From assembly GCA_965200355.1 (NCBI GenBank), contig OZ241351.1, forward strand, positions 1,564,163 through 1,628,162: 64,000 nt of DNA. Reading direction: 5' to 3'. Source of the DNA: an uncultured Candidatus Binatia bacterium. Lineage in GTDB: Bacteria; Desulfobacterota; Binatia; Bin18. Below are positions 3,374 through 28,885 of this stretch, piece by piece. The notes under the pieces are model-generated. The model was given only the letters and a program-made list of their open reading frames with translations, was not told the DNA's origin and ran no database searches. Each line of letters opens with the position of its first letter. Within the stretch, counting starts at the first letter, position 1. A program made the translations under genes and the position numbers.

Positions 3374-3482
3374 GCTTCCCCTCCTCCCGAGTGTCCTGTG
3401 TCGCTTTTCCACCTCAACGCGGGGGCTGGTGTGAAGGCCACCTCCCCCGCGTCATCCGCAAGACCGGCCAGGATGTCCGGGC

Positions 3483-7853: not shown

Positions 7854-7878
7854 CGCGTCTCCTCCCGACCGGGGGGAG

Positions 7879-12002: not shown

Positions 12003-12006
12003 CACC

Positions 12007-12606: not shown

Positions 12607-13088
12607 GCGGCCACTCCAGGCGGGAGAATCAGCGCCGCCGGGCGACTGGTCTGCTTCAGGGTCGAGGCCGCCCAGCCAATCGCGTCCTCAAGGGTCTGTT
12701 CTTCAAGCACCCGGTACGGAATTTTCAGGGTGGATAACAAGGCGGGCAGGATGTCGCCCATAATAAGATGCTCCGGCGCATCCTTGCCCTGATAGCCGCG
12801 CCACGTAATCAGCAGCAGACAGGGCAGGGCATAGATCAAACTGAGAGAAGACAGGGCATTCAGGCAGACCCCCAGACCCGAGTTCTGCATAATGACAACG
12901 GGTTGTTTGCCTGCCATATAGGCTCCTGCGGCCAGGCCCACCGCCGCGTCCTCGCGCGTCTCGGCAATATAGCCCCCCCGTTCTTCAAGCGTGGCAATCA
13001 CCCCCTTGACCAAGGAGCACGGCACTCCGGTAAAAAAATCAAAGCCGGCCTGCCTGAGATGGTGCACAAAATGGGGTCCACTGACCAT
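12603..13088 (-). CDS. Phosphonopyruvate/sulfopyruvate decarboxylase, alpha (N-terminal pyrimidine-binding) subunit
   Basis: 161 aa; FFTGVPCSLVKGVI...VVIMQNSGLG is typical of the ComD/Ppd N-domain. The split 161 + 199 aa architecture matches ComDE sizes. Confidence 0.65.
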   Translation of the reverse strand: MVSGPHFVHHLRQAGFDFFTGVPCSLVKGVIATLEERGGYIAETREDAAVGLAAGAYMAGKQPVVIMQNSGLGVCLNALSSLSLIYALPCLLLITWRGYQGKDAPEHLIMGDILPALLSTLKIPYRVLEEQTLEDAIGWAASTLKQTSRPAALILPPGVAA

Positions 13089-13112
13089 GAGGGAACGGGC
13101 CTCCTTTTTGGG

Positions 13113-15980
13113 CTATTGGCTTGGTTGGGTCGGACTCAATCGGCTCACCTCACGCCCCCTGTCTCCTGTCGAGTCCTGCCCGGGGAGTGCTGGAGCGGCG
13201 AGCCTCGAATCCTGCCGGCTTCCTTCCGTTCGATATAAGAGCAGGGGCAGAATCACAATAGAGGCGAGCAGGACGCTCCCGACTGCCAGGGTCAGCAGGA
13301 GGCCCATGCTGAAAATGCCATAGTACTGAGCGACCATCAGACTCCCAAAGCCGACCATGGTCGTCAGCGAAAACAGCACAACCGCCTGGCCGGTACTGCC
13401 GGCAATCAGGCTGCCGACCGAGCCGACCTGACCGGCCCGAAAACGATGGACGAGATGGATACCATTCTCTACGCCAATGCCGATAATCAGGGGGGCGGCA
13501 ACCATATTGGCCAGATTAAATTGCACATTCCCCAGCCACATCAGGCCCGCGGTCCAGACCATGCCCAGACCGAGTGGCAGGACGGCCAGCAGGGCATCCG
13601 TGACCCGTCGGAGCGCCACAAAGGTGACAACCAGGATGGCGAGGAAGGCATACCCGGCCGCCTCAATATAACCGGCCTGCATCGCCCCAATAGACTCGTA
13701 GCCAATAATCGGGGAGCCGGTCACATCCGGGTCAACCGTGCGCAACTGCCGAATGAACTCCGTTAGTGGCTCGCGCTCCCAGATATTTTCCTTGGGATAG
13801 ATCTGTAAAAGAAACCGTTGGCCGTCGCGGCTGACAAAGCGGCTGCGCAACTGAGACGGGACATCCGCAAAGGTAATCGGCCCAGCCGGAGATAAATTAT
13901 TCTTGAGCAGAGACCATTTGTCCTGAAAGTCGACAAACAGCGCGTCCTGAAAAAGGGCCAGACGCTGCTGAACATTCTGTTCGGGCAGGGTGCGGAGCGC
14001 TTCAAAAACGGCCAGCAGATGATGGCGGGCCTCATGCAGGAGCGTTTCGCTGGTGTCTTCCTGGGTGCGAATTTTCAGACGGAGTTTATCCAGGGTCTGG
14101 GCCAGCGGCTTGACTGCCACCGGCTGGGGGTCCGTGCGGAGCGGAGGGAGCTCGCTCAGCAGCGGGCGCATAGCAGCAAGGATAGGCAGGCGTTCCTGTT
14201 GTCCGTCCGGAATCAGTGAGGCGACGCTCTCCACAGTTTCCACGCTGGACAGGGCGGCAAATGCCAGGGCCTTTTGCCGCGCCGCTTCTGGCGTCGAGGC
14301 GGTCGCCAAGGAGTTCCAGGACGAGCGTTCAGAGTTTTCAATGATGCGTTTTTCCCACTCAACAGACTCGGTGCCGTGCGCCTGGAGGTTCAGCAAATTA
14401 TAGTCAAAGGAGACCCAGGGCAGCGCCAGGAGTCCCGCCGCGGTGGCCAGGCCGGCGATGCCGAAGAGGACCCCGCTCTTCTGTTCGACGTATCGGCCCA
14501 GCCCAGAAAACGCTGTCTGCAAGAGCGTCTGTCGTCCGACGGCAACCCGCCAGGGCCAGAACGCATCCATCCCGACGATCATGGCCGGCAAGAACGTCAG
14601 AATCGCCACAACCGACAACAGAATGCCCCCGCCCGAAATGATGCCGAGTTCCTGCACGCCGCGAAAGTCCGCCAGTATGACCGCAAAAAAGGCGAGCGCG
14701 GTGGTCAGCGCCCCCGCAATAATGCTGGGGACGGTCTGTTCAAACACGATGGTAATGGCTTCGGCCTGGTTTTTGCCCTTGCCCCGCTCTTCCTCATAGC
14801 GGGTCATGAAATGGACGCCGAAGTCGTCGGCCAGGCCGAGCAGCATTGGGGCGATAAAGACGGTAATAATCGTCAGATGACCGACTGAGAGGGTGACAAA
14901 ACCCAGCGTCCAACTCAGACCGATCATGAGCGCTGAAACAATGAAGAGCGGGTGCCGAATTCGCCGGAAAAAGATCAAGTACAGGAGCGCAATACCCGAC
15001 AGGGACACCACGGTTGCCACGGCCGTATCGTGCTGAGCGCTGAGCATTTCATCATTGCCCAGCGCCTTTGTGCCGGTGACGCCAGCCTCCAGACCCGGAA
15101 ACTCCCCTTTCAACTCGGCAATCGCCTGCCGAATAGCGGCCATCGACTCCTGAAGGTCGTTGAAACCCGCGCTGGCGTCTTCTTTTGCCTCGACCATGAG
15201 GAAGAGGTATTGACGGTTCTCGGCAATGAGGAAGCCGTCATCATCGAGCTGGGCGGTCCCACCAAAAAACTCGGCCCAGGGAGAGCGGTAGCGGTAGTCT
15301 TGTCCGTGCAGCGCGCGTGCAATCTCCTGTAATAATGCGGTGAGGAAGGACAACTGAGAGTCGGAGAACTCACCCGAGTCCTCATCCAGCGGGGCTCCCA
15401 GCCCGAGGAAGTCGTCAACCAGATGCGACACAACGGCCCGACTGACTTGGGTGTTAATCGCCTCGAACAGCGTATTCAGACCGGGGTTTGTCAGCAACTC
15501 GTGAATGATCTCTTGCGAGTCTGCCAGACTCCGCTGTAAATCGCGCAGATCCTCAGCCGGCAGATAGAGCAGCTTCTTGCCCTCTAAGGAGGAAGCATCG
15601 ACGCGGTAAAAAATCTCGGCAATATGCTCCTGCTCCCGAGCGAGCCGTTCACCCAGACGGGTCACAAAGGCTTTGCCCTGGGGGATGTCTTGCGGGGCAA
15701 CCACCACCGCCACCTGATCCACCCCGACAAATTCTTCGGAATACTCTTCGTCGAGTTGCAGGTAGCGCTTATCGGTCGAAATCAGATCATTGCGGCCGGT
15801 GACGAGTTCGAGGTGGCGGGCGGTGTAGACCGAGGCCGCAACCGAAAGCAGGAGACACAGGGCCAGGGCCGTCTTGGCGTAGGCAACGATTCCCCGAGCG
15901 CAGGCTCGCAGGGCGCGTTTTTCCAGGGCAACGAGGCGGTGTTTCAAAGAAGGGCTGACCTGCACGGATACGGTCTCCAC
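13113..15980 (-). CDS. hpnN: RND/MMPL-family hopanoid transporter HpnN-like (955 aa)
   Basis: 12-TM RND topology with two large periplasmic loops. The size and MMPL-type motifs match HpnN. Sits in an operon with MlaC- and MlaA-like genes and next to hpnIJK. Confidence 0.75.
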   Translation of the reverse strand: METVSVQVSPSLKHRLVALEKRALRACARGIVAYAKTALALCLLLSVAASVYTARHLELVTGRNDLISTDKRYLQLDEEYSEEFVGVDQVAVVVAPQDIPQGKAFVTRLGERLAREQEHIAEIFYRVDASSLEGKKLLYLPAEDLRDLQRSLADSQEIIHELLTNPGLNTLFEAINTQVSRAVVSHLVDDFLGLGAPLDEDSGEFSDSQLSFLTALLQEIARALHGQDYRYRSPWAEFFGGTAQLDDDGFLIAENRQYLFLMVEAKEDASAGFNDLQESMAAIRQAIAELKGEFPGLEAGVTGTKALGNDEMLSAQHDTAVATVVSLSGIALLYLIFFRRIRHPLFIVSALMIGLSWTLGFVTLSVGHLTIITVFIAPMLLGLADDFGVHFMTRYEEERGKGKNQAEAITIVFEQTVPSIIAGALTTALAFFAVILADFRGVQELGIISGGGILLSVVAILTFLPAMIVGMDAFWPWRVAVGRQTLLQTAFSGLGRYVEQKSGVLFGIAGLATAAGLLALPWVSFDYNLLNLQAHGTESVEWEKRIIENSERSSWNSLATASTPEAARQKALAFAALSSVETVESVASLIPDGQQERLPILAAMRPLLSELPPLRTDPQPVAVKPLAQTLDKLRLKIRTQEDTSETLLHEARHHLLAVFEALRTLPEQNVQQRLALFQDALFVDFQDKWSLLKNNLSPAGPITFADVPSQLRSRFVSRDGQRFLLQIYPKENIWEREPLTEFIRQLRTVDPDVTGSPIIGYESIGAMQAGYIEAAGYAFLAILVVTFVALRRVTDALLAVLPLGLGMVWTAGLMWLGNVQFNLANMVAAPLIIGIGVENGIHLVHRFRAGQVGSVGSLIAGSTGQAVVLFSLTTMVGFGSLMVAQYYGIFSMGLLLTLAVGSVLLASIVILPLLLYRTEGSRQDSRLAAPALPGQDSTGDRGREVSRLSPTQPSQ

Positions 15981-16038
15981 TCACCCAACGCGCTGGGATG
16001 TCTCAGACGAAGAGAGGCGGGGGCAGCGAGGCCGGCGT

Positions 16039-16647
16039 TTATCCGGCCTCGTCGGTCTTGGCGTTTGCAATGATCTGCTGCATCCGCTTCACCAACTCTT
16101 CGTAGGACTGTTTGGACATGAGCGATTGCACTTGTCTGCGCAGGTTGCTGGCCATACTGACCCCGTCGAGCCGAACGTCCCAGATTTTCCATACGCCCTC
16201 CGACTGATTGAGCCGAAAACCGATGGTCACCCGCCCCTCATCTGGATTCACGACCGAGACCTCGGTCAGGGCCTCGTTGCCTTGCTGCTGCATGTCGCCG
16301 TATTCGAACTGGGTGTCCGCCAGAAATTCCGACGCTCTGGGGTAGGCCAGTTCACGCAGCAAGCGTGTCAAAAGGCCGATGAAATCAGCCTCCTTCTCTT
16401 GGCCGAGGGTGTCCCAGTGGGGTCCCATCAGCCAGCGCGACAGTTGCGTAATGGCCAGGTTTTTTTCGATCTCTTCATTGGTGCACTGCGGGGGAGCCGA
16501 GGGCAAACCAAAGTCTTGACCACACGACTGCATAGTCGAGAGCAGCCGCTCGGTCACCTCCGCCGGAGAATCTGCCCAGCCGAGCCGGGGAAAAAGGAGA
16601 CCGACCACCAAAAGGAGAATTGTGACCACGATCAAGCTCCTCAACAC
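16039..16647 (-). CDS. MlaC/Ttg2D-family periplasmic lipid-binding protein (HpnM-like)
   Basis: 202 aa with signal peptide. Size and pattern fit toluene-tolerance Ttg2D/MlaC proteins found in hpn clusters. Confidence 0.55.
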   Translation of the reverse strand: MLRSLIVVTILLLVVGLLFPRLGWADSPAEVTERLLSTMQSCGQDFGLPSAPPQCTNEEIEKNLAITQLSRWLMGPHWDTLGQEKEADFIGLLTRLLRELAYPRASEFLADTQFEYGDMQQQGNEALTEVSVVNPDEGRVTIGFRLNQSEGVWKIWDVRLDGVSMASNLRRQVQSLMSKQSYEELVKRMQQIIANAKTDEAG

Positions 16648-16688
16648 GCCAGTCGCCGTTTTCCTGATGTTTGCACGAGGCCGGCGGC

Positions 16689-17459
16689 CTATTCTGCGAT
16701 CTGCCTCTCCCGATTTTGCAGATAGAAGTCTTGCACTGCGCTATACATATCAAGAGAGTAGCGGTCCACACTCTCGAAGAGTTCCAGATTGAGAGAGCGT
16801 TCGTTGACCGCACTGCTGACCAGGGTGCCTGTATCCGTTGCCATGACTTCGACCGTGGATAAAAAATAGATCTTCGGGTCCATCGCTCCGTCAGCCACCC
16901 GGCCAATAGCATCGCGCACCGTGGAAGGGCCGATAAAGGGCAGCACCAGATACGGACCCGAAGCCACGCCATATTTCCCGAGCGTTTGCCCAAAGTCTTC
17001 TTCGCTGACTTCGAGTCCGAACTGCGTTTTGGCCACATCGAAAAAGCCGAACCCACCGACGGTTGTGTTAATCGCAAAGCGCCCGGCTTCCCGCGCCGCC
17101 CCGTCCAGCTTGAGCTGAAAGAGGCTATTCGCAAAGCGCGGCACAACCCCGATATTATGGAAAAAACGGCGCACGCTGAGACGCGCCGGCTCCGGCACCG
17201 CCCCGGCATAGGAACGGGCGACCGGGCGGAGAATATGTTCGTCCATCCAGATGTTGAAAGAGAACATCTTCTCATTAAAGGGTTCAAAAACAGACGGTTT
17301 GTACACCGGGGTGGATCTGTCAAGCATGTCCAGCGAGTCATCCAGCCCCGACTGCATTGCCCCATTCTGAGCCCCGGCCTTTGGCACATGCGGGCCAAGT
17401 CCGAGAACACTGACGAAACACACAACCATCATCACACCGCTCAGTCGTTGTTTTTGCAT
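16689..17459 (-). CDS. MlaA/VacJ-family outer-membrane lipoprotein
   Basis: Signal peptide, then conserved VacJ region (FNEKMFSFNIWMDEHILRPVARSY...GRFAINTTVGGFGFFDVA...LVLPFIGPSTVRD). Confidence 0.8.
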   Translation of the reverse strand: MQKQRLSGVMMVVCFVSVLGLGPHVPKAGAQNGAMQSGLDDSLDMLDRSTPVYKPSVFEPFNEKMFSFNIWMDEHILRPVARSYAGAVPEPARLSVRRFFHNIGVVPRFANSLFQLKLDGAAREAGRFAINTTVGGFGFFDVAKTQFGLEVSEEDFGQTLGKYGVASGPYLVLPFIGPSTVRDAIGRVADGAMDPKIYFLSTVEVMATDTGTLVSSAVNERSLNLELFESVDRYSLDMYSAVQDFYLQNRERQIAE

Positions 17460-17477
17460 TGTTCTACTCTCTGCATA

Positions 17478-17900
17478 CTAGGCGTTTCGGGTTGGCAGCA
17501 AAACGGTCGCCGTACCAATGACCCAGCGTTCGCCGTCATCGTTCTCCATCCAGATATCACACTCAGCCGTCCGTCGCTCCGTATCCTTCTGGGTGACAAA
17601 GCCGAGCAGGTGAATCGCGCAGTCGGGCAGGACCGGGCTGCGAAACGTCGTACCGATCCGGGTAATCTGGGCGGCTTGGTTCCACTCGCCGATCAGTCGG
17701 GCCAGCAAGCCCATACTCAGGACCCCAGGCGCGATCATGCCCGGCAGGCCCTCCTGGCGGGCCCCTTCGTCGTCCGTGAAGCGGGGGAAATCCATACCGG
17801 CCGTTTTGGCGTATTTGCGGACAAAATCCTTGGTCAGGAGCAGGTCGATAGGCGGCAACTCGTCGCCCTCTTCGACCTCTTCAAAATAGCGCGTCTTCAT
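17478..17900 (-). CDS. MaoC-like (hot-dog) enoyl-CoA hydratase subunit
   Basis: 140 aa hot-dog fold. ATGA overlap with the upstream MaoC-like partner gene. Confidence 0.65.
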   Translation of the reverse strand: MKTRYFEEVEEGDELPPIDLLLTKDFVRKYAKTAGMDFPRFTDDEGARQEGLPGMIAPGVLSMGLLARLIGEWNQAAQITRIGTTFRSPVLPDCAIHLLGFVTQKDTERRTAECDIWMENDDGERWVIGTATVLLPTRNA

Positions 17901-18340
17901 CGCTGCATAATCCTATGGTCAACAATCGCAACCTGCTGGCCGTCCTGGTTCGTGATCTTATTCCGCAGGACGATAAAATACATGGAGCCGCTGCGCCCGG
18001 TTTTCTCGTAAATATCGTGGATGGTGCTGACCATTTTCAGCCGGTCCCCGGGTCGGACTGGAGCAAAAATTTCAACATCACGTCCACCGTCAAAGCCGAC
18101 CTTGCCGAAACGCGGCATATGCTCGGGCGTCATTTTTTTGGGCCGGAGCCGGGTCACATACGTCGGAGCCGCCACCAGACCGCCATAGGGGCCGTTCGCA
18201 GCCGCTTCTGGGTCGGTGTAGAGCGGGTTGGTCTCTCCCAGCGCCTCGGCAAATTGCAGGATGTCGGCTGTCTCAACCGCTGGAAAGTCGGTTTCGTCAA
18301 ACACCTGGCCTAAAATGGACCGATCAAATTCCAGTGCCAT
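17897..18340 (-). CDS. MaoC-like (hot-dog) dehydratase subunit, partner of 17478..17900 (ChsH1/ChsH2-type split hydratase)
   Basis: 147 aa. Two adjacent small hot-dog proteins are typical of heteromeric MaoC hydratases. Confidence 0.65.
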   Translation of the reverse strand: MALEFDRSILGQVFDETDFPAVETADILQFAEALGETNPLYTDPEAAANGPYGGLVAAPTYVTRLRPKKMTPEHMPRFGKVGFDGGRDVEIFAPVRPGDRLKMVSTIHDIYEKTGRSGSMYFIVLRNKITNQDGQQVAIVDHRIMQR

Positions 18341-18351
18341 GCGTGTCTCCT

Positions 18352-19038
18352 CTACGCGCCCGACCCACCGTTGGGCGCCGGCCGGGCTGGGGTGCGTCGG
18401 ACCCGAAAATCAACCGGACGGTAGCCGCCGGTTCGGAGCGCCTCAACCAATTCTTCTGTATTCGTAATATCTTGCTCAAACGCGGTGGCGCAAATCCCGA
18501 CAAAGCTGACCAGATGGGCATCGCTGCCCCCAAAGGCGTGATAGCCATACGTATCAATCAGCGCGGCCACCCGTTCATTTTCGCCTTTTTTGCTGCCCCC
18601 GTTCAGAGCTTCAACGCCCACAACGCCGGCGAGCGGAGGACGGTTTGCATAGTGTTCAATCAGGCCGATAGTGGGCCGCCCTGGGTGACACGGCATGGCC
18701 ACCCCGCCCATGCGCGCCACTTCGTCAATCAACTCCTGGGCTCGCAGCCGGACGTTGGAGAAGTCGAAGCGTCGCAGCATGGCGTCGTTGACCCCATATA
18801 CCAGCACATGACCATACTCGGTCTCGACTTCAGACGCTTTAAGAATCAGCAGGTCATACTTATCTTCCAGCGCCCGGTAGTCACTCTGGGTGTCGAACTG
18901 ACGGTGTTCGGTCAGCACGATGCCGTCCAGCGGCCGTTCGCCTCGTTTCCGGGCCAGCCATTTGAGATAAGCCTCAACCGGGGCGCGGCTGTCGTCCGAG
19001 GCTTCAGAATGAAGGTGGAGGTCAATTACTCGTGCCAT
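18352..19038 (-). CDS. PHP-domain metal-dependent phosphoesterase
   Basis: MARVIDLHLHSEASDDS N-terminal His-rich PHP motif. 228 aa. Confidence 0.7.
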   Translation of the reverse strand: MARVIDLHLHSEASDDSRAPVEAYLKWLARKRGERPLDGIVLTEHRQFDTQSDYRALEDKYDLLILKASEVETEYGHVLVYGVNDAMLRRFDFSNVRLRAQELIDEVARMGGVAMPCHPGRPTIGLIEHYANRPPLAGVVGVEALNGGSKKGENERVAALIDTYGYHAFGGSDAHLVSFVGICATAFEQDITNTEELVEALRTGGYRPVDFRVRRTPARPAPNGGSGA

Positions 19039-19138
19039 GGGATATCTGCGTCAATGGTCAGCGTCATTTTTCTGGCTGCAAAATACGGCCCTATAGTGCC
19101 AGAAGCCAACGATTTGAGTCAATTGGGTCAGCCGAGTC

Positions 19139-19582
19139 CTATGCGTCGGACCCCACTGACGAGGCGACCGGCGTGAACAGTGGCACCGAGACATCTGGCG
19201 TCAGGTCCTCGAAGGTGACTTCGACCGGCATGCCGATGGTGACGCTCTCCGGGTCACAGCCCACGATATTGGTCAGCACCCGTACCCCTTCTTCCAGTTC
19301 GACATAGGCCATGACGTAGGGCACTTTGGTGCGAAAACCCGCACTCTGATTCTGACGGGTAATCGTAAAGGTGTAGACCGTCCCCTTGCCGCTACAGCGC
19401 AGCCACTCAAAGTCCGGCGACAGGTCTTCGAGGCAAAAGGCCCGGGGATAGTAAAAGACCGTTCCACATTCACGACATTTCTGGACATACAGCTCGTGCC
19501 GGGCGCAGGCTTCCCAGAACGGGCGGGACTCTTCATCGACCCGTGGAACCGGACGACTCGTTTTCTTTCTCTCATCAGCCAT
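19139..19582 (-). CDS. DUF35 protein (OB-fold + rubredoxin-like Zn-ribbon), the scaffold/partner subunit of SCP-x-type thiolases/aldolases
   Basis: CxxC...CxxC (CRECGTVFYYPRAFC) followed by an OB-fold. Start set at MADERKK, which has a GAGGGA SD. Confidence 0.75.
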   Translation of the reverse strand: MADERKKTSRPVPRVDEESRPFWEACARHELYVQKCRECGTVFYYPRAFCLEDLSPDFEWLRCSGKGTVYTFTITRQNQSAGFRTKVPYVMAYVELEEGVRVLTNIVGCDPESVTIGMPVEVTFEDLTPDVSVPLFTPVASSVGSDA

Positions 19583-19622
19583 AAGCATTTCCCTCGTTGC
19601 TGGCCTCGTTGCTGAACCGCGT

Positions 19623-20771
19623 CTATACGCCGAGGACCAGAGAGGCACCGCTGTGCCGCAGCCCGAGCGTGCCACCCGTTCCATGACAAAAGGCGAGGGC
19701 GCAATTTTCGACTTGCCGCTCCCCACACTCGCCGCGTAACTGCTTGACCGCCTCAATCACCAGAAAAATACCGCGCATCCCAGGGTGGTTGGAGGATAGC
19801 CCGCCGCCGTCGGTATTGAGCGGGAGTTCCCCGCCCAGACCAATACGGCCGTTCTGGACATACGCCCCGCCTTCCCCTTTTGGGCAAAATCCCAGGCTTT
19901 CGAGGGTAATACAGACGGTAATGGTGAAGGAGTCATAAATCATGGCCATGTCAAAGTCGCTATGACTCACCCCGGCCCGCTGCATGGCCGTGGGACCGGA
20001 CTGCTTGGCCGCCGCGTCAGTAATATCGCGCATCCCGGCGCTGGTATGCGCGCAGGACTCTGCCGCACTCAGGAGATACACCGGCTTTTTTCTGAGGTCG
20101 CGCGCCCGCTCCGCAGAGGTGACCACCAGCGCGCCGCCGCCGTCGGAGATCATGCAGCAGTCCAGCAAGTGCAGCGGTGACGACACCTCGCGCGAGGCCA
20201 GGACGTCGTCAACGCTAATCGGATCGCGAAACTTGGCGTGCGGATTCAGCGCGGCGTGTTGGCGCGTGGTCACGGCAATCTCGGCCAGCTGTTCACTGGT
20301 TGTGCCGAATTCATACATATGCCGCTGGGCGGCCAGGGCGTAGGCCCCAACGGTGGTCGGACCGTAGCAGCCTTCAAATTGTTCGGGCGGGTCGCCGCTC
20401 CCACCCCCCCCGGTGCCAACGGCAAAACGGTCTGAGGACCATTTGCTGCCGTACAGGATCAGGGCGACCGTGCAGTAGCCGGCGGCAATCGCCGCCGCGG
20501 CATGGGCCGTATGCGACACAAAGGACGAGCCCCCAATCGAGTTGGAGTCCAGGAAATCGGGGTTGAGATTCAGATGCTCGGCCAAGGCGATAATCCCCAT
20601 CCCGCCCACCCCCGAGGTCAACAGGCCGTCCACGTCTTTGATACTCAGCCCGGCATCGTCCAGCGCGCCGCGCGCGCTCTCGGCCATGAGCTGGTATTGG
20701 GTCTTATGCGGAGCCCAACGGAGCGGGTGCTCGTAGACGCCGGCCAGCGCGGCTTTTCGACTGATACTCAT
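19623..20771 (-). CDS. SCP-x/Ltp-type thiolase-fold protein (thiolase or retro-aldolase)
   Basis: 382 aa thiolase fold lacking the classical thiolase N-terminal motifs. Adjacent to the DUF35 gene, as in Ltp2-ChsH2, BbsAB and the archaeal thiolase/HMGCS/DUF35 complexes. Confidence 0.75.
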   Translation of the reverse strand: MSISRKAALAGVYEHPLRWAPHKTQYQLMAESARGALDDAGLSIKDVDGLLTSGVGGMGIIALAEHLNLNPDFLDSNSIGGSSFVSHTAHAAAAIAAGYCTVALILYGSKWSSDRFAVGTGGGGSGDPPEQFEGCYGPTTVGAYALAAQRHMYEFGTTSEQLAEIAVTTRQHAALNPHAKFRDPISVDDVLASREVSSPLHLLDCCMISDGGGALVVTSAERARDLRKKPVYLLSAAESCAHTSAGMRDITDAAAKQSGPTAMQRAGVSHSDFDMAMIYDSFTITVCITLESLGFCPKGEGGAYVQNGRIGLGGELPLNTDGGGLSSNHPGMRGIFLVIEAVKQLRGECGERQVENCALAFCHGTGGTLGLRHSGASLVLGV

Positions 20772-21607
20772 ACGCTTCCTCTTTCATTGAAGAACGCCTG
20801 AATGGCGTCGCAGGCGGCCTGCGGTTTTTCAAGTGGCAGCCAGTGACCGGCCTCGGGAATGACCGCCAGTTGGGCATTCGGAATATGGTCCCGCAGCTCT
20901 TCGGCCTGAGCGACGGGCGTGGTGGCGTCATCGGCGCCGGCCAGCACCAGTGTCGGCCGGTCAATCTGTCCAAGCTGGGCTCTCAGGTCAACCTGCTGGC
21001 AGGCCAGCAAATCAAAATAGCGGACCCGCGGGTCGGTTTTAATCTGCTCCATCCAGCCAGCCTGGATAATCTCCTGCGGTGTCTGCGGTGAGCACGACAC
21101 CTTGGTAAACGGCTGTCCCCGCCGGCCTTTCATCACCGCCTGCCAGGTGCTGAGTAACTCATCCGGGATAGTGAATTGCGCTGCGGTGCAGGTCAGGACG
21201 AGGCATTCGACCATATCCGCGTGGCGCAGGGCCAAGTCCAGGGCAATGGCACCCCCCATCGAATGGCCAATAATCACCACCGGGCGGACAGCCAAGGTCT
21301 GCCACAAGCGATAGGTAAAGTCGCTATACGCGGCCACGCTTTTGAGACTTTCTGTTCCGCTCGAACGTCCGTGGCCTGGAAAGTCGAAGGCGAGCGGACT
21401 GTGAGCCGCGGAGAGAATATCCAGCATTTTATGGGCGAAATGCCCATTACTGCCCGCCCCGTGGACGTATAAAAAGAGTCGGCCTTGGCTGACATCAGGC
21501 ACGACCGGCGGCAGCGTTGTCTGGCCGGTGTGAAAGTAATGCACCGCATAGCCATCAACATCAATATATTTGGTTGGCATAGCCCCTCGCTTTGGAAAAA
21601 CTGTCAA
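20768..21607 (-). CDS. Alpha/beta-hydrolase fold protein
   Basis: GHSMGG nucleophile elbow; 279 aa; overlaps the thiolase start by 4 nt. Confidence 0.75.
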   Translation of the reverse strand: MTVFPKRGAMPTKYIDVDGYAVHYFHTGQTTLPPVVPDVSQGRLFLYVHGAGSNGHFAHKMLDILSAAHSPLAFDFPGHGRSSGTESLKSVAAYSDFTYRLWQTLAVRPVVIIGHSMGGAIALDLALRHADMVECLVLTCTAAQFTIPDELLSTWQAVMKGRRGQPFTKVSCSPQTPQEIIQAGWMEQIKTDPRVRYFDLLACQQVDLRAQLGQIDRPTLVLAGADDATTPVAQAEELRDHIPNAQLAVIPEAGHWLPLEKPQAACDAIQAFFNERGSV

Positions 21608-21755
21608 AAGATGTACTGACTAATCGGGCAGGGTCGAGTTTGTCAAGAGTGAGGCGCGAGAGGAAGGCCGACGGAGGTCACACGTCAAGCCACGCTCCAT
21701 GCCACCGCTCAGCCCTGGCCGGCTCTATCATGCCCAGCCCAGCCTGAAGAGCCAG

Positions 21756-24700
21756 CTACAGCGCTGCCACGCTGAGGTCGTTTGTGCGCTCGGCCAGCCG
21801 CCGCTCAAACGCGGCTAGCTCGTCATCCAGGATCGTGAAGTATTTGGCTTGGGGATGGTGGAAGACGAGCGCCGAGACCGAGGCTTCTGGCTCCATCATA
21901 TAGCCCTCGGTCAGCCCAACGCCGATTGCAGCGGTGATGGGCAACACCCGAAACAAACCTGCCTGGTCTTCGAGGCGTGGACAGGCCGGATAGCCGAAAC
22001 TTACCCGGACGCCACGGTAGCGCGCCTTGAAGCGCTCTCGCATGGTCAACTCCGGTGGGTCGGCAAAACCCCACATCGCCCGCAGGCGCTGATGGAGCAG
22101 TTCGGCAAACGCCTCCGCGCCCTCAATCGCCAGGGCTTGCAGGATATGGGACTGAAGATAGCGGCCCGCCTCACGGTACTGGGCCGCGAGTTCGCGGACC
22201 CCGTGGCCACAGGTCACGGCAAACAGCGCGATATAGTCCTGTTCACCGCTGCTCGCTGGAGCCACAAAATCACTCAGACACAGGCCCTCGCCATGTTGCT
22301 GGCGGGGAAAGACAAACGTGGCGGCAATCTCTTGGCCGTTGGCCCGATACAGCCGCAGGCGGTCGCCGTCGGCCTGGGCCGGAAAAAATTGATATACCGC
22401 CCGCGCCCGCAATAATTTTTTGGCCACCACCTCATCTATCACGGCTTGGACCTGCTGGTGTAACTCGCCCGCTTTTTTGTCACCCTGGGCTAACAAGGTC
22501 TCAAGATTCCCTTTGAGGCCCAGATGCTTGCCGTACAGCATGGTGGGGTTGAGATAGGCAAAAATCGCGTCCAGGTCATACGCATCAAGCGTATGCAGCC
22601 GCAGGTCGGGCGGATGTGGGGCCGGCTGTGCGTGTGAAAGCAGCGTAGGTTGGATAGCTGGCGTCTCGGCTGCGCCCGGTTGGGGTGCGCGCGCCGGGCG
22701 TGCCAGACGTGCCCGCTCTTTCTCAAGGTCTCGTAGCAGCGCCCCGCGCCGGTCTGCATCCATAATCTGGTTGGCCAGGTCCAGACCACGCATGGCATCG
22801 TTCGCGTAGCAGACCAGGCCGGCATACTCGGGGGCAATTTTATTGGCGGTAAAACGGGGAGTCAGCGCGGCCCCGCCAACCAGCAGGGGACAGCTCACTT
22901 GGGCCGTGGTGAGGTCCTGGGCCGTCACCACCATCTGTTGGGCCGATTTGACCAGTAAACCGGACAGACCTACGAGGTCGGGTTGATGGGTGCGCACGGC
23001 TTCTATCAGGGTTTCGGGCGCAACTTTAATGCCGAGGTTGACCACCCGGTAGCCGTTGTTGGCCAGGATGATCTCCACCAGGTTTTTCCCGATATCATGC
23101 ACATCACCCTTGACGGTGGCCAGGAGGACGGTGCCTTTGAGCCCCCCGTCCGGCGAAGCGGAAACGGGTCCAGCGCCTTCAGGGTGTTGGACACCTTCCC
23201 CCTTTTTCTCCATAAAGGGTTCGAGATGCCCAACCGCCGCCTTCATGGCCTCCGCACTCTGCAAGACCTCGGCCACAATGAGTTCGTTGTTATTAAACAG
23301 CCGGCCGACCTTATCCATCCCCGCCATGAGCGGTCCGTTGATAATGTCCAGGGGGGCGCGCTCGGTGAGGGCGGTGTTGAGGTCGTCTATCAGCCCGTCT
23401 TTGGAGCCCTCTATGATGGACCGCGCCAGCCGTTCATCTAGCGGCAGGTCGGCGCGCGTATCCCGCACGGTACTCTCTTTCTTGTGTCGAAAGTGAGCGG
23501 CAAAGGCGGCCACCGGGTCTGGGCCATGCCAGTAAATGAGATCGTTGGCCAGGCGTTTTTCTGCTTCGACAATCGAGGCGTAGCGTTCGAGCTTTTCCGT
23601 GTTCACTATCGCCAAGTCGAGCCCGGCCTTGACACAGTGGTAGAGAAACACCGAGTTCAACACCTCGCGCCCGGCCGGGGGCAGGCCAAAGGACACATTG
23701 CTGATGCCCAGAATGGTCTTGCAGGCCGGCAGCGCGTGTTTAATCAGCCGGACGCCGGCTATCGTCTCCTCACCCGCGCCAATATAGTTGCGGTCGCCAG
23801 TTCCCAGGGGAAACACCAGCGGATCAAAAATAATATCTTCGGCGACCAGGCCGTACTTCTGGGTCAGCAGCGCATAGCTGCGTTTGGCCACGGCGAGCTT
23901 CCGCTGCCGGGTAACGGCCATGCCCTGTTCCGGGTCTTCATCGATACAGCCCACCACCACCGCCGCCCCGTAGCGTTTGAGCAGCGGCACGACTTGGGCA
24001 AACCGTTCCTCGCCGTCCTCCAGGTTGATTGAGTTGATAATCGCCTTGCCCTGGGAACGCTCAAGCGCGGCTTCAATGACCTGCGTGTCGGTCGAGTCGA
24101 TCATCAGCGGGACTTTGATCTTCCGCACCAGCATATCCAGAAAGGCGGTCATATCGCCGCGTTCTTCACGGTCCGGGTCGGCCAGGCAGACATCCACGAT
24201 ATGGGCCCCGCCCCGCACCTGTCGGCGGCCGATTTCCGCGCCCTCTTCAAACGCGCCGTCGCGGATGAGCCGCTTGAATTTGCGCGAGCCAATGACATTC
24301 GTGCGCTCCCCGACCAGCACCGGGCGTTTGTCTTCGTCAATCACCAGGGGTTCAAGTCCCGAGACCACGCTGCGGGTCGTTGTCGGCGGCCTGCGCGGCG
24401 GCTTGCCCTCCAGCATCTGACTCAGCAAGGCGATATGGGCGGGGGTCGTGCCACAGCAGCCGCCCAGCATATTGAGCCAACCGGCATCGACAAACCGTTC
24501 GAGCTTGGCCACGACCATCTGGGGGGATTCGTTGTAGTGGCCTTCTTCGTCTGGCAGCCCGGCGTTCGGAATACACAGCGTGGGAAAACGGGAGAATGCC
24601 GCCAAGGTCCGGAGATGATCGGTCATGAAATCGGGTCCGGTCGCACAGTTGAGGCCAAGTGCCAACAGGTCCCGATGGGCCACGGAGGTATAGAGGGCCT

Positions 24701-25361
24701 CCACTCCCTGGCCGGCCAACATCGTTCCCATGGTTTCAATCGTGACCGAGACGGCAACCGGGACGCGGAGCCCGACCGTCCGAAACGCAGCGTCAACCCC
24801 CAAGAGGCCGGCTTTCAGGTTGAGGGTATCCTGGGTCGTTTCCATCAGCAGTAGGTCAACGCCCCCCCGGAGCAGGCCGGCTGCTTGTTCCGCATAGGCG
24901 TGCCGCAGTTGGCCGAAGGTCGTCCCGCCGGTGACTGAAATCGTTTTGGTCGTTGGCCCCATGGAGCCGGCCACAAAGCGGGGCCGGTGTGGAGAGCTGT
25001 GACGACGGGCACAGGTCTGGGCGAGTTGGGCCGCGGTCTGGTTAATGGCACTCGTCTGCTCGTGCAGACCATACTCGGCCAGGACGATACGCGACGCGCC
25101 AAAGGTATTCGTTTCAATGATATCCGCCCCGGCCCGCAAGAAGTCGTCGTGAATCTGGGTGATGGCGTCAGGGCAAGTCAACACCAAGTGTTCATTGCAG
25201 CCTTCGTAGGCCAGCCCGCCGAAATTGTCCGGGCTCAGATTTTGGGCCTGGATAGATGTCCCCATAGCGCCGTCAAAGAGCAGGACCCGCTCACGCAGGA
25301 GGGCGCACAGGTCACGCGCCCGGGCCGATAACGAAGGCAGTCTGTCGTTCACATTGCCCAC
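21756..25361 (-). CDS. metH: Cobalamin-dependent methionine synthase MetH (1201 aa)
   Basis: Homocysteine-binding, pterin-binding, B12-binding (GDVHDIGKN) and AdoMet-activation domains, in canonical order. Confidence 0.9.
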   Translation of the reverse strand: MGNVNDRLPSLSARARDLCALLRERVLLFDGAMGTSIQAQNLSPDNFGGLAYEGCNEHLVLTCPDAITQIHDDFLRAGADIIETNTFGASRIVLAEYGLHEQTSAINQTAAQLAQTCARRHSSPHRPRFVAGSMGPTTKTISVTGGTTFGQLRHAYAEQAAGLLRGGVDLLLMETTQDTLNLKAGLLGVDAAFRTVGLRVPVAVSVTIETMGTMLAGQGVEALYTSVAHRDLLALGLNCATGPDFMTDHLRTLAAFSRFPTLCIPNAGLPDEEGHYNESPQMVVAKLERFVDAGWLNMLGGCCGTTPAHIALLSQMLEGKPPRRPPTTTRSVVSGLEPLVIDEDKRPVLVGERTNVIGSRKFKRLIRDGAFEEGAEIGRRQVRGGAHIVDVCLADPDREERGDMTAFLDMLVRKIKVPLMIDSTDTQVIEAALERSQGKAIINSINLEDGEERFAQVVPLLKRYGAAVVVGCIDEDPEQGMAVTRQRKLAVAKRSYALLTQKYGLVAEDIIFDPLVFPLGTGDRNYIGAGEETIAGVRLIKHALPACKTILGISNVSFGLPPAGREVLNSVFLYHCVKAGLDLAIVNTEKLERYASIVEAEKRLANDLIYWHGPDPVAAFAAHFRHKKESTVRDTRADLPLDERLARSIIEGSKDGLIDDLNTALTERAPLDIINGPLMAGMDKVGRLFNNNELIVAEVLQSAEAMKAAVGHLEPFMEKKGEGVQHPEGAGPVSASPDGGLKGTVLLATVKGDVHDIGKNLVEIILANNGYRVVNLGIKVAPETLIEAVRTHQPDLVGLSGLLVKSAQQMVVTAQDLTTAQVSCPLLVGGAALTPRFTANKIAPEYAGLVCYANDAMRGLDLANQIMDADRRGALLRDLEKERARLARPARAPQPGAAETPAIQPTLLSHAQPAPHPPDLRLHTLDAYDLDAIFAYLNPTMLYGKHLGLKGNLETLLAQGDKKAGELHQQVQAVIDEVVAKKLLRARAVYQFFPAQADGDRLRLYRANGQEIAATFVFPRQQHGEGLCLSDFVAPASSGEQDYIALFAVTCGHGVRELAAQYREAGRYLQSHILQALAIEGAEAFAELLHQRLRAMWGFADPPELTMRERFKARYRGVRVSFGYPACPRLEDQAGLFRVLPITAAIGVGLTEGYMMEPEASVSALVFHHPQAKYFTILDDELAAFERRLAERTNDLSVAAL

Positions 25362-25481
25362 CCAAGTCCTGAAGGGGCACCCGTGTCAACATCTGTATAG
25401 CGATTGGGGGACACGGTGACGCTTTTCCTTATACGGAGGCCGACGTGGAGCATACAGGGAATGCAGACGGCCGTCTCAAAC

Positions 25482-25515
25482 GGCACTACGCGCAGCATTG
25501 ACCGCGCGTAGTGCC
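25482..25515. promoter_or_regulatory. Perfect 12-bp-arm palindrome (GGCACTACGCGC-N10-GCGCGTAGTGCC) in the divergent metH/res intergenic region; candidate operator
   Basis: Read directly. A second 10-bp palindrome GACGGCCGTC sits at 25466-25475. No adjacent U-tract on either strand, so a terminator is unlikely. Confidence 0.35.
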
Positions 25516-25746
25516 GCCTCTTATATACGCCGAGAAATTGCTTGTCTAATGGGGTAGGGGTGTGGACGGGGGACGGTCAACAGAGAAGGAGAAAATGTCG
25601 GGACGGTCTCAATCGGGATTGCCACCACACAGGCGAAGCGCTAGGGGAGAGGAGCGAGGGCCTGTCCCTGTCACTTTTTGCCGAAGAGTCCGCTGGACCA
25701 GGAATGTTCCGAACACAGAAAAAACCACCCAAGGGAAGGACGGCGA

Positions 25747-28700
25747 TATGGCCGACCAGAGCCAGCCGGAGGGCGCGCTCGTCCAATCTGAGAAAACGGC
25801 CGCTCGTCAGTCTTCCTTCCCGGAGCCAGGCGTTCTGATGGACCAGCGCTTCTTCCAACAGCCTGTTTTGAATTCGCCCTACGAGTATCCCAGGCAGCAC
25901 TGGGAGCTTGATGAGCAGGGACAGCCAACCCAGCGGATCATCGCAACCCGCCGCCGGGCCGAGTTTATTACGCCCATTCCAAAGCCGCGCAAACGCAAAG
26001 GCTCCGCGCACCAGCAGTCACTCGCCTTAGATGAAGGCCACGGACTCTCAACCGCTGAGCAGCAGTACGACCCGACCTCCATTATCACCGCGCTCCGTCG
26101 TCAGGTGGACCAGTGGCGCAGCCGACCGAATCCGGCCGACTGGCAGGTGACACCCGAGACCGCTCGTCTGCTGCAACACTGGAGACAGCATCAGTTCAGC
26201 ACTATCCGGCCCTTCTTCTGTCAAGTGGAAGCCGTGGAAACCGCGATCTGGCTGACCGAGGTTGCTCCGAGAGCGGGCAAGACCGGCAAGGATTTTCTGG
26301 CACATCTCACCAACGCCAATACCGACGCCAATCCGGGTTTACAGCGCGTGGCGCTCAAGCTCGCCACCGGCGCGGGCAAGACCACGGTTCTTGCCATGCT
26401 GATCGCCTGGCAGACCATCAACGCGGTCCGCCGCCCAACGAGCAGAAGATTTACCCGTGGCTTTCTGGTCGTTACGCCCGGTTTGACGATCCGTGACCGG
26501 CTGCGCGTCCTGCAACCGAACGACCCGGACAGCTATTACGCCAGCCGGGAGCTGGTGCCGGGCGATATGCGCGGCGACCTCAGCCGGGCCAAAATCGTCA
26601 TTACCAACTATCACGCCTTCAAGCGGCGTGAGCGCATGGCGCTTTCAAAAGGCGGTCGCTCGTTGCTCCAGGGGCGCGGGGCCGCCTTGAACACCTTGGA
26701 GACCGAAGGGCAGATGCTTCAGCGCGTCATGCCCGACCTGATGGGCCTGAAAAATATCGTGGTGATGAACGATGAGGCCCACCACTGCTACCGCGAGAAA
26801 CCGGAAAAAGATGACGAAGGAATACTGAAAGGCGACGAGCGAAAAGAAGCGGAGAAAAACAATGAGGCGGCGCGGCTGTGGATTTCTGGCCTGGAAGCCG
26901 TGGGCCGCACGCTGGGTCTGGCGCGGATTATCGACGTATCGGCCACACCGTTCTTTCTGCGCGGCTCGGGCTATGCCGAGGGCACGCTGTTTCCCTGGAC
27001 GATGAGCGACTTTTCCCTCATGGACGCCATCGAATGCGGAATTGTCAAGCTGCCCCGGGTGCCGGTGGCAGACAACATCCCTGGCGGCGAAATGCCGAAA
27101 TTCCGCAATCTGTGGCAACATATTCGACCCCGGATGCCGAAAAAGGGCCGGGGCAAAGCCAAGACCCTTGACCCGCTCAGCCTGCCGGTTGCACTCCAGA
27201 CCGCCCTGGACGCCCTGTACGGCCATTACCAACAGACCTCTGCGTTATGGCAGCAGAAGGGCATTCAGGTGCCGCCCTGTTTTATCGTGGTGTGCAATAA
27301 CACCTCGACCTCCAAGCTGGTGTATGACTATATCTCCGGCTTTTGGCGGGACAATGACGACGGTTCACCGACACTCGAGCATGGCCGCTTGCCGCTGTTC
27401 CGAAACCATGAGGCCGACGGGACTCAATTGGCGCGTCCGCGTACCCTCCTCATCGACAGCCAGCAACTCGAATCCGGGGCTGCCCTGGACACCAATTTTC
27501 GGGCGATGGCGTCAGATGAGATAGCACGCTTCCGCCGCGAGATTATCGAACGGACCGGCGACCATCGCCAGGCCGAAAACCTGTCTGACCAAGACCTGCT
27601 GCGGGAAGTCATGAACACGGTCGGCAAGCCGGGCCGGTTGGGCGCGTCGATTCGTTGCGTGGTGTCGGTTTCCATGCTGACCGAAGGCTGGGACGCCAAC
27701 ACGGTCACGCACGTGTTAGGCGTGCGCGCCTTTGGCACGCAATTATTGTGCGAACAGGTCATTGGGCGGGCCTTGCGCAGGCAATCCTACACGCTGAATG
27801 AGAAGGGGCTGTTGAATGTGGAATACGCCGATGTGCTGGGGATTCCGTTTGACTTTACCGCCAAGCCGGTTGTTGCTCCGCCCCAAACGCCCCGCGAGAC
27901 CGTGCAGGTTCAAGCGGTGCGGCCCGACCGCGACCATTTGGCCATTCAGTTTCCCCGGGTCGCCGGCTATCTCGTTGAACTGCCGGAGGAACGACTCAGC
28001 GTGCAGTTCAACGCCGATTCCGTTCTGGAATTGACCCCAGACCTGGTTGGCCCCTCAATGACCCGGAACGCGGACATTATTGGCGCGGATGTTGACCTGA
28101 GCCTGAAGCATCTGGACAACCTGCGTTCCTCAACCGTGGCGTTCCACGTGACCAAGCGCCTGCTCTACACCAAATGGCGCGACCCTGGCGCAGCACCGAA
28201 GCTCCACTTATTCGGGCAGTTGAAACGCATTTCGGGCAGTTGAAACGCATCACCACGCAATGGCTGGCGACCTGTCTGGTCTGCAAAGGCCGGACCTACC
28301 CCGCTCAACTCCTGTATCAGGAGCTGGCCGATATGGCCTGCGAGCGCATTACTGCTGGTATCACCCGTTCCGTCATCGGCGACCGGCCCGTAAAAGCCGT
28401 GTTGGACCCCTACAATCCCACCGGCTCGACCACGCACGTGCACTTCCATACCTCCAAAGCGCACCGCTGGCAGACGGATGCCCGGCGGTGTCATATCAAC
28501 TGGGTCATCCTCGACAGCGATTGGGAGGCCGAATTCTGCCGGGTGGTTGAGTCGCACCCCGCGGTGCGGGCCTATGTGAAAAATCACAACCTCGGCCTGG
28601 AGGTGCCCTACCGCTCCGGCTCGACCCTGCGGACCTATATTCCCGACTTTATCGTGCTGCTGAACGACGGGCATGACGACCCGTTGCATCTGATTGTTGA

Positions 28701-28854: not shown

Positions 28855-28885
28855 GGGGTTAGTGGATAGTGGGGAGTGGGGAGCG
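28855..28885. repeat. GGGGTTAGTGGATAGTGG repeat copy immediately 3' of res (same family as the repeats flanking the four-helix-bundle cassette)
   Basis: TGAGGGGTTAGTGGATAGTGGGGAGTGGGGA directly follows the res stop codon. Confidence 0.7.

Follow-up and report, generated by a model that had tools for sequence, protein, structure and literature searches.

A six-gene operon conserved across Candidatus Binatia encodes a cysteine-less thiolase-fold protein that, with a DUF35 partner, may act as an aldolase

Introduction

What chemistry can be expected of a thiolase-fold protein that has lost both catalytic cysteines, and what might a DUF35 protein, two small MaoC-type (hot-dog) proteins, a PHP-family hydrolase and a serine hydrolase contribute beside it? 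The question is raised by six genes at positions 17478-21607 of a 64,000-nucleotide stretch of contig OZ241351.1 (assembly GCA_965200355.1, positions 1,564,163 to 1,628,162) from an uncultured Candidatus Binatia bacterium. This whole stretch is called the window, and positions are counted from its first nucleotide. The original prediction took the six genes for a ChsH1/ChsH2/Ltp2-like hydratase-aldolase module adjacent to hopanoid genes and raised the possibility that it trims the side chain of a hopanoid-derived acyl-coenzyme A (acyl-CoA). To our knowledge, the class Binatia has no cultured members, and the only thiolase-fold aldolases that we know of belong to steroid side-chain degradation (Ltp2 and Sal), where each type has a different catalytic pair.

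The six genes most likely encode a multi-protein machine acting on a CoA thioester. We give an even chance to the reading that its centre is a thiolase-fold enzyme without cysteines, anchored by the DUF35 protein, which would cleave or form a carbon-carbon bond by aldol-type chemistry with the hot-dog, PHP and hydrolase proteins as partners. The substrate, probably a CoA thioester, is probably not derived from a hopanoid.

Results and Discussion

Six genes form one operon

Six co-directional open reading frames (ORFs) lie on the minus strand between 17478 and 21607. In the order of transcription they are:

20768-21607, minus strand: alpha/beta-fold serine hydrolase, the first gene of the module, with a conserved start at 21580 (Pfam Abhydrolase_1, 7.5e-29)
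19623-20771, minus strand: SCP-x-type thiolase-fold protein of 382 aa (Thiolase_C_1, 1.2e-55; NCBIfam PRK06158, 451 bits against a cutoff of 421)
19139 to about 19588, minus strand: free-standing DUF35 protein, zinc ribbon plus OB fold (zf-ChsH2, 1.5e-12; OB_ChsH2_C, 2.1e-25)
18352-19038, minus strand: PHP-family metal-dependent hydrolase of 228 aa (PHP_C, 2.3e-14)
17897-18340, minus strand: hot-dog protein of the N-terminal type, MaoC_N / FAS1_DH, HadA-like (FAS1_DH_region, 6.6e-24)
17478-17900, minus strand: hot-dog protein of the C-terminal type, MaoC, HadB-like (MaoC_dehydratas, 3.6e-07, 30.3 bits against a cutoff of 27)

The original prediction had named these same genes (two MaoC proteins, DUF35, SCP-x thiolase, PHP phosphoesterase and alpha/beta hydrolase); all six are real, its coordinates are right, and Pfam and NCBIfam agree on the families. 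Its description of DUF35 as a separate gene also holds, with zf-ChsH2 and OB_ChsH2_C together on an ORF of their own. The hydrolase stop overlaps the thiolase start by 4 bp, and the HadA-like stop overlaps the HadB-like start to the same extent. The remaining intergenic gaps measure 11-100 bp, and the DUF35 gene lies 35-40 bp downstream of the thiolase-fold gene. A scan of 12000-22000 for promoters and terminators returned the counts expected from shuffled sequence and no terminator-like site between module genes; a TTGACA at 21641-21646, upstream of the hydrolase gene, has no acceptable -10 element. An Rfam and riboswitch scan of 15500-26000 detected no RNA element, its sole match being below threshold and at chance level. 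The six genes are one self-contained operon of the class Binatia. Neither a CoA ligase, an acyl-CoA dehydrogenase, a 3-hydroxyacyl-CoA dehydrogenase, a reductase nor a carrier protein is encoded in it.

The window proteins were searched for in 86 related loci, of which 71 had enough flanking sequence to be informative. All six genes were present in 63 of the 71. They were contiguous and in the same order within 5.2 kb in 59 of the 71, an arrangement far beyond chance. Inserted genes interrupt the module in 4 of the 63 six-gene loci; PhyH, short-chain dehydrogenase/reductase (SDR) and CoA-transferase genes, for example, lie inside it in locus L079. Eight of the 71 lack the hot-dog genes, or the hot-dog and PHP genes, within the available flanking sequence. 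The trio of hydrolase, thiolase and DUF35 was kept in all informative loci: wherever a related locus has sequence there, the hydrolase gene immediately precedes the thiolase gene, and a DUF35 gene was found in every related locus with room for it. Conservation is unusually high, with identities across related loci of 66-96% for the thiolase-fold protein and 55-94% for the PHP protein. Proteins 95-96% identical to the former are encoded on complete chromosomes of Candidatus Binatia metagenome-assembled genomes (MAGs). The loci are labelled mostly as Binatia or 'delta proteobacterium' MAGs, and one each as Thermodesulfobacteriota, Nitrospinota, Acidimicrobiales and Margulisiibacteriota.

The thiolase-fold protein has no catalytic cysteine

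The thiolase fold is confirmed by Thiolase_C_1, by PRK06158 above its cutoff and by a match to Protein Data Bank (PDB) entry 4U4E at 8.8e-115. At the aligned nucleophile position, where 7YVY (an archaeal-type thiolase) and a Cys-bearing Binatia paralogue read AACAS/NACAS, the protein has Gly80-Gly81, and Gly is found there in 83 of 83 relatives. Instead of HDCF, all 83 carry the motif that begins at Tyr279 and reads Y279-D-S281-F in the window protein (last position Phe in 78, Tyr in 5). At this site SCP2 thiolases read HDCF, BbsB and 7YVY HDAF, Ltp2 YDHF and Sal YDCY. The original prediction had named the Cys pair as a check on its own reading: neither catalytic cysteine is retained in any of the 83 relatives and, with both absent, the protein is predicted to be incapable of thiolysis.

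An ordinary acetyl-CoA acetyltransferase or beta-ketothiolase, working with an (R)-enoyl-CoA hydratase in fatty-acid beta-oxidation, is what the source annotations ('acetyl-CoA C-acetyltransferase') and the above-cutoff model PRK06158 ('acetyl-CoA acetyltransferase') would imply. We find this scarcely credible. It is already contradicted by the sequences, in which both cysteines are gone and both hot-dog proteins lack the hydratase dyad (see below), and the operon has no 3-hydroxyacyl-CoA dehydrogenase to go with it.

Where, then, does the protein belong? Its best PDB match, at 387 bits, is 4U4E, an uncharacterised Sphaerobacter 'thiolase'. CtSal (9MYR, 203 bits) and TcLtp2 (6OK1, 173 bits) come next, ahead of BbsB (7PXP, 141 bits) and the archaeal-type thiolase 7YVY (133 bits). 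In a neighbour-joining tree, the window protein and 4U4E (Binatia plus Thermomicrobiales) form one clade with 100% support, and this clade joins Sal and Ltp2 against BbsB, the archaeal-type thiolase and the Cys-bearing Binatia paralogue with 99.5% support. In the same tree, which samples few taxa, the window protein falls inside neither the Sal nor the Ltp2 clade. The phylogenetic expectation of the original prediction was thus borne out in part: by bit scores and by the tree the protein groups with Sal and Ltp2 and not with true thiolases, and it stands outside both of their clades. Judged by sequence, it is part of a large Cys-less branch that databases name 'acetyl-CoA acetyltransferase'. 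Among 1.84 billion cluster representatives, 1354 clusters (50% identity) matched at E <= 1e-30. YDxF, where x is Ser, Ala, Cys, Asn or Pro, is present in nearly all of the 124 nearest full-length representatives, most of which keep the His described below.

The residues that remain in the active site point to aldolase-type chemistry. Tyr279 aligns with Tyr294 of Ltp2 and Tyr302 of Sal, and the Tyr of YDxF/Y is the catalytic base in TcLtp2 and CtSal, the latter of which also has Gly at the nucleophile position (PMC12329534). The acid residue is Tyr344 in Ltp2 and Cys304 in Sal, and the C304S mutant of CtSal is inactive (PMC12329534). This second residue is not kept here: the Tyr344 position is occupied by His329 and the Cys304 position by Ser281. 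His329 is present in 83 of 83 relatives and aligns with Tyr344 of Ltp2 and Gln352 of Sal; H363, also among the motif residues of the fold, is invariant in the same 83. Since residue 281 is variable in close clusters, it is probably non-catalytic, and the second catalytic residue is more plausibly His329. The alignments therefore support an aldolase-type protein with a putative third version of the active site, made of Tyr279 and the invariant His329. The former active-site segments IGGSSF, YDSFT, GGGLSSNHPGMRG and HGTGG are invariant in 81-83 of the 83 relatives.

Some Binatia loci have thiolase-fold paralogues close to the module. Locus L049 (about 2421-4000) has a Sal-like thiolase-fold paralogue with the motif YDCY and a DUF35 gene of its own, and locus L016 (about 2160) has a true-thiolase paralogue with the catalytic Cys.

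The DUF35 protein resembles those of Shy and ChsH2

The partner expected for such an aldolase was identified as the original prediction had supposed, the DUF35 domains of Shy and ChsH2 being the most similar to the window protein. The best PDB match is the DUF35 domain of CtShy (9MYR_B, 1.5e-25, 93 bits), followed by that of ChsH2 (6OK1_B, 2.3e-21); archaeal DUF35, PhlB and BbsA rank below both. Proteins in which DUF35 and thiolase are fused occur in the family (P0414, P0428), and these fusions support a physical partnership. The DUF35 protein is presumed to be both partner and scaffold of the thiolase-fold protein. Its zinc ligands C37, C40 and C51 are conserved among the DUF35 relatives. The fourth (residue 54) is Cys in 57 of 81 relatives and Asp in the window's own clade (20 sequences), which makes a Cys3-Asp variant.

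Several other known systems were rejected. BbsAB was set aside on scores (BbsB model 164 bits against a cutoff of 750, BbsA 39.8 against 250) and on the absent catalytic Cys. The archaeal thiolase/HMG-CoA synthase/DUF35 complex and PhlABC were set aside because the operon and its annotated flanks have no gene for HMG-CoA synthase or PhlA (KAS III-like) and the Cys is absent. Polyhydroxyalkanoate metabolism was rejected because a required partner gene, or the required Cys or Asp/His residues, are absent.

The hot-dog pair lacks the hydratase dyad

Two adjacent subunits of hot-dog fold are confirmed, and the Asp/His dyad is found in neither. In the HadA-like protein the hydratase motif reads G-E36-T-N-P-L-Y41. 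Its Asp position is Glu in 65 of 67 relatives, and its His position is Tyr in 48, Phe in 8 and His in only 4 of the 67. In the HadB-like protein the GDxNPxH motif reads G-M-x-x-P-R-F; the Asp position is Met in 54 of 66 relatives, the His position is Phe in 66 of 66, and R40-F41 is invariant. No histidine is conserved at the level of at least 90% in either protein.

With the dyad absent from both subunits, the canonical (R)-hydratase mechanism is unavailable. The claim that the two MaoC proteins form an active hydratase of the ChsH1/ChsH2 type was not upheld, as dyad and conserved His are missing and the sequences are nearer to HadA and HadB. The HadA-like protein matches Rv0130 and HadA in the PDB, with the NCBIfam models for HadC and HadA far under their cutoffs, and the HadB-like protein aligns to HadB and to the fused MaoC proteins 5I7N and 4V12. 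No ChsH-named chain was among the PDB matches of either at E <= 0.01. In ChsH1-ChsH2 it is ChsH1 that carries the dyad, the His of the motif being replaced by Tyr in ChsH2 (PMC11321319). By their motifs, both partners here are of the ChsH2 kind. The pair is most likely a module for binding the acyl chain rather than a canonical hydratase, and a non-canonical role for the conserved Glu36 is conceivable.

Canonical catalytic residues have thus been lost in three of the six proteins, and the operon could on this ground be taken for a mostly non-catalytic assembly that binds or shuttles lipids or acyl groups, with catalysis left to the PHP protein and the hydrolase. NCBIfam 'lipid-transfer protein' models do match the thiolase-fold protein, below their cutoffs, and lipid-transport genes adjoin the module in the window's clade. 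We nevertheless think it quite unlikely, since active-site segments as invariant as those described above are what is expected of a working site, and the Tyr that they contain is the proven catalytic base in homologues (PMC12329534).

The hot-dog pair is replaced in two Binatia MAGs. Directly after the PHP gene, loci L051 (10242-15011) and L056 (10985-14998) have instead a gene for a 411-aa protein and one for a fused biotin carboxylase/biotin carboxyl carrier protein/carboxyltransferase of 1176-1337 aa. The 411-aa protein of L051 gave no match in Pfam, NCBIfam or the PDB.

The PHP protein and the serine hydrolase appear intact

The metal ligands of the PHP protein (H8, H10, E44, H45, H77, H118, D173 and H175) are invariant in alignments of 16 and 23 sequences. 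The Pfam PHP core scored under its cutoff (17.5 against 26.4), PHP_C scored over it, and a CehA/McbA metallohydrolase model reached 66 bits against 80. A homologue search returned close Binatia relatives alone, named 'PHP domain protein' or 'TrpH', and a profile of the protein gave only weak matches in the PDB. An AlphaFold2 model (pLDDT 83.5) was matched by Foldseek to PsfC (7RTY), the PHP domain of RNase AM, TM0559 and the pAp phosphatase Cv1693 (2YB1), with probability 1.0 and 13-20% identity; these closest structures cover differing activities. From its ligands, the protein is predicted to be an intact metal-dependent hydrolase.

The hydrolase ORF is open to a TTG at 21607, and the start that it shares with its relatives, MPTKY, lies at 21580. 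The nucleophile elbow is G-H-S116-M-G, with Ser116 present in 76 of 83 relatives; Asp226/227 and His255 are present in 81 of 83, and a Ser-Asp-His triad is kept. The best PDB match is the esterase 5FRD (2.2e-22). Beyond this, the protein resembles generic esterases, enol-lactonases and C-C hydrolases below family thresholds, with NCBIfam PcaD and BioH likewise under threshold. With their catalytic residues intact, the PHP protein and the serine hydrolase both look active.

The hopanoid neighbourhood is confined to one lineage

Upstream of the module in the window is metH. On the downstream side, 18 bp separate the last hot-dog gene from the start of a gene for MlaA. Next come an MlaC/HpnM-like gene and an HpnN-like RND gene (13113-15980); the HpnN-like and HpnM-like genes scored under their NCBIfam cutoffs. 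HpnK, HpnI and HpnJ (6411-10023) all scored above theirs and lie about 7.5 kb beyond the module. That the module is adjacent to hopanoid genes accordingly holds in a loose sense: the Mla- and HpnN-like genes are directly next to it, and HpnK, HpnI and HpnJ are farther off.

Between the HpnN-like gene and hpnK/hpnI/hpnJ, at 10171-13088 on the minus strand, is a set of aminoethylphosphonate (AEP)-type genes. It comprises a split thiamine-pyrophosphate-dependent decarboxylase of the phosphonopyruvate/sulfopyruvate type, an AEP aminotransferase (TIGR03301, 363 bits, above cutoff) and a nucleotidyltransferase. Such a set is a hint that a hopanoid or some other lipid carries a phosphonate head group. 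No phosphoenolpyruvate mutase gene that would complete it was present among the window ORFs scanned.

How general is this neighbourhood? Of the 62 loci with at least 7 kb of downstream sequence, 16 have two or more of the MlaA, MlaC/HpnM-like and HpnN-like genes after the module. In all 16 the thiolase-fold protein is at least 82% identical to that of the window, placing them in its own clade. The other 46 of the 62, including two of the close clade, have no downstream Mla/HpnN-like genes. In Candidatus Binatus soli the module is flanked by citrate synthase and methyltransferase genes upstream and a radical SAM/SPASM protein gene downstream; in locus L004 by toxin-antitoxin genes and acyl-CoA dehydrogenases; in L019 by an MFS transporter; and in L006 and L050 it is followed by a PlsC-type acyltransferase. 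The hopanoid adjacency is a local accident of one lineage.

By analogy with ChsH1-ChsH2-Ltp2 and Shy-Sal, the module might shorten the side chain of a polycyclic acyl-CoA, hopanoid-derived or other, in concert with the adjacent lipid-transport genes (HpnN-like, HpnM-like and MlaA), a reading that we consider improbable. The closest characterised homologues are indeed steroid side-chain aldolase pairs, and in the window's clade MlaA is 18 bp away with the MlaC/HpnM-like and HpnN-like genes next and HpnK/HpnI/HpnJ within 7.5 kb, an arrangement found in 16 loci. The 46 loci without Mla/HpnN-like genes speak against it, as do the flanks of other clades (citrate synthase, methyltransferase, radical SAM/SPASM, PlsC, CoA-transferase, acyl-CoA carboxylase and MFS transporter). 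Neither the operon nor its annotated flanks contain a gene for an acyl-CoA ligase, a ChsE-type dehydrogenase or ring degradation. The hydratase dyad is missing as well, and 66-96% identity of the thiolase-fold protein across the class would be unusual for a peripheral catabolic enzyme. Conservation of the locus beside unrelated genes had been named at the outset as the outcome that would refute the hopanoid interpretation; the module is kept beside such genes in most relatives, and the interpretation is left unsupported.

In the distant clade of L004 and L031, an HpnJ-like B12/radical SAM gene lies 4.3 kb upstream of the module (about 4246-5688 in L004). Its product is 71% identical to the window HpnJ, and it is accompanied by SCP2, SIS and GFO/IDH genes, without hpnI or hpnK. 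We count it as weak residual support for a hopanoid link.

A further rival is suggested by the carboxylase, acyltransferase and transporter genes that flank the module in some clades. Here the enolate would come from malonyl-CoA or a carboxy-acyl-CoA by decarboxylation and be added to an aldehyde or ketone, giving a beta-hydroxyacyl-CoA for an unusual lipid; the hot dogs, hydrolase and PHP protein would tailor or release the product, which would be handed to acyltransferases or lipid exporters. The fused carboxylase stands directly beside the module in L051 and L056, the PlsC-type acyltransferase follows it in L006 and L050, and MlaA, MlaC and an MMPL transporter are downstream in the window clade. 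The hot-dog proteins are HadAB-like, and the Trypanosoma brucei protein TbSLP has weak malonyl-CoA decarboxylase activity (PMC12329534). We judge this condensation unlikely, in that carboxylase and acyltransferase are each found in just two loci, the operon has neither a reductase nor a carrier protein, and CtSal does not decarboxylate malonyl-CoA (PMC12329534).

Proposed mechanism and relation to known systems

Returning to the aldolase, we envisage the following course. The DUF35 partner would anchor the thiolase-fold protein, in the manner of Sal-Shy and Ltp2-ChsH2, and Tyr279 of YDSF would take the proton from a beta-hydroxyl group. The bond between C-alpha and C-beta would then break to give an aldehyde or ketone and an acyl-CoA enolate, which the invariant His329 would protonate or stabilise. 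The reverse reaction, aldol addition, is equally possible. The hot-dog proteins, whose genes are translationally coupled, may form a HadAB-like heterodimer whose task, like that of ChsH2 or HadA, would be to hold the acyl chain or present it. The PHP protein and the serine hydrolase would presumably process or release the product by hydrolysis of phosphoester and ester or thioester bonds, before or after the aldol step. Gene content, residue patterns, synteny and nearest homologues are what the sequences show; complex formation, chemistry and the order of steps are what we infer.

Several points weigh against this course. The window protein has Ser at residue 281, a position filled by Ala, Cys, Asn or Pro in close clusters, and the C304S mutant of CtSal is inactive; in view of both, the general-acid role of His329 is one that we infer. 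The references in the tree were few, some of them rebuilt from HMMER alignments and one partial, and the closest structure, 4U4E, is a structural-genomics entry bearing the bare name 'thiolase'. With the dyad absent, the operon has no evident route to a beta-hydroxyacyl-CoA substrate. What we propose for the PHP protein and the hydrolase is guesswork.

The nearest characterised system is CtSal-CtShy of Comamonas testosteroni (9MYR), the bile-acid C5 side-chain aldolase (PMC12329534). The two share the SCP-x thiolase fold, Gly at the nucleophile position and the Tyr of YDxF/Y, and CtSal requires its DUF35 partner; CtSal and CtShy are also the best PDB matches of the respective proteins (203 and 93 bits), 4U4E apart. 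Unlike here, the acid in Sal is Cys304 of YDCY, for which the window protein has Ser plus an invariant His at the position of Sal Gln352, and the DUF35 domain of Shy is fused to a MaoC hydratase whereas DUF35 is a separate gene in the window. The window protein is in a separate clade, and no steroid gene context surrounds it.

Similar differences set the operon apart from TcLtp2-ChsH2(DUF35) with ChsH1-ChsH2 (6OK1), the actinobacterial C3 steroid side-chain hydratase-aldolase. Common to both are the Cys-less fold, a Tyr equivalent to Y279 (Y294 of YDHF), the DUF35 partner and two adjacent hot dogs, one of them resembling ChsH2 in that Tyr stands in for the His (PMC11321319). In the Binatia protein, however, Tyr344 is replaced by His, neither hot dog has the Asp/His dyad that ChsH1 carries, and the DUF35 domain is not fused as it is in ChsH2. 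No ChsE-type dehydrogenase, CoA ligase or ring-degradation gene was found in the annotated flanks, and a steroid-catabolic context is lacking. As far as these residues and the clade placement tell, the locus belongs to neither the Ltp2 nor the Sal family, from which its second catalytic residue differs, and it is no ChsH-type hydratase. It plausibly works like the DUF35-anchored aldolases all the same.

Two further systems share parts of the operon. Like mycobacterial HadAB/HadBC, the (3R)-hydroxyacyl-ACP (acyl carrier protein) dehydratase, it has two small adjacent hot-dog subunits, for which these are the best NCBIfam and PDB similarities; unlike HadB, with its catalytic Asp36 and His41, the HadB-like protein has Met and Phe, and scores are far under the family cutoffs. 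TbSLP is a thiolase fold without the Cys nucleophile and a proposed aldolase with the motif YDCF (PMC12329534). It differs in keeping the motif Cys, in having no DUF35 partner and in being eukaryotic. Literature searches on DUF35, MaoC, aldolase and Binatia returned steroid systems only and nothing on this operon, and results on PsfC were irrelevant.

The best PDB match, 4U4E of Sphaerobacter thermophilus, and its Thermomicrobiales kin share the 100% clade, the signatures GGSSF, YDSF and HP, and an adjacent DUF35 gene. In S. thermophilus (CP001823, L087 1175-11574) and Nitrolancea (L088), the thiolase/DUF35 pair closes a conserved beta-oxidation-like cluster. This contains two PimC/PimD-like acyl-CoA dehydrogenases, a canonical MaoC hydratase (GDHQYIH), a nucleoside-diphosphate-forming acyl-CoA synthetase, a calcineurin-type metallophosphoesterase and two SDRs. 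In contrast to the Binatia module, it has no alpha/beta hydrolase, PHP protein or dyad-less hot-dog pair. The content of the cluster supports action on a hydrated enoyl-CoA. A phosphoesterase of different fold thus accompanies this thiolase-fold family in two phyla, and its recurrence may point to a phosphorylated intermediate or to the CoA 3'-phosphate.

A fuller version of the aldolase proposal can be framed, which we put forward tentatively and with some doubt. The operon would encode an undescribed DUF35-scaffolded complex that is a core, class-wide trait of Binatia. Its third-type aldolase (Tyr279/His329, lacking Cys and a second Tyr) would make or break a C-C bond on a CoA thioester, possibly with decarboxylation of a carboxy-acyl-CoA; a catalytically dead HadAB-like heterodimer would present the substrate, and the PHP protein and serine hydrolase would complete a pathway to or from a metabolite that may be phosphorylated or a lipid.

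Other features of the window

Three features elsewhere in the window are recorded here. On the minus strand at 968-2901, a TonB-dependent receptor extends over two overlapping ORFs (968-1843 and 1771-2901), which may reflect a frameshift or a pseudogene. At 25562-32015, a ResIII-type helicase (893 aa) and an N6/N4 DNA methylase (930 aa) surround a 277-aa ORF without a family match; this island, located at a dip in G+C between metH and an enoyl-CoA hydratase gene, resembles a type III-like restriction-modification or defence system. At 37369-39645, on the minus strand, a single ORF of 758 aa contains two LptF/LptG permease domains, a fused LptF-LptG.

Implications

The comparison of loci ties the hopanoid adjacency to a single lineage and should thereby keep a wrong functional assignment from spreading. 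The thiolase-fold family to which the window protein belongs is very large and routinely mis-annotated as acetyl-CoA acetyltransferase. What the locus suggests for that family is a third kind of active site, in which Tyr is paired with His and the variable position of the motif is Ser, Ala or Cys. For Binatia, an operon so rigidly conserved and so oddly composed, with dyad-less hot dogs, a PHP protein and a serine hydrolase as partners, offers an experimental handle in an uncultured class.

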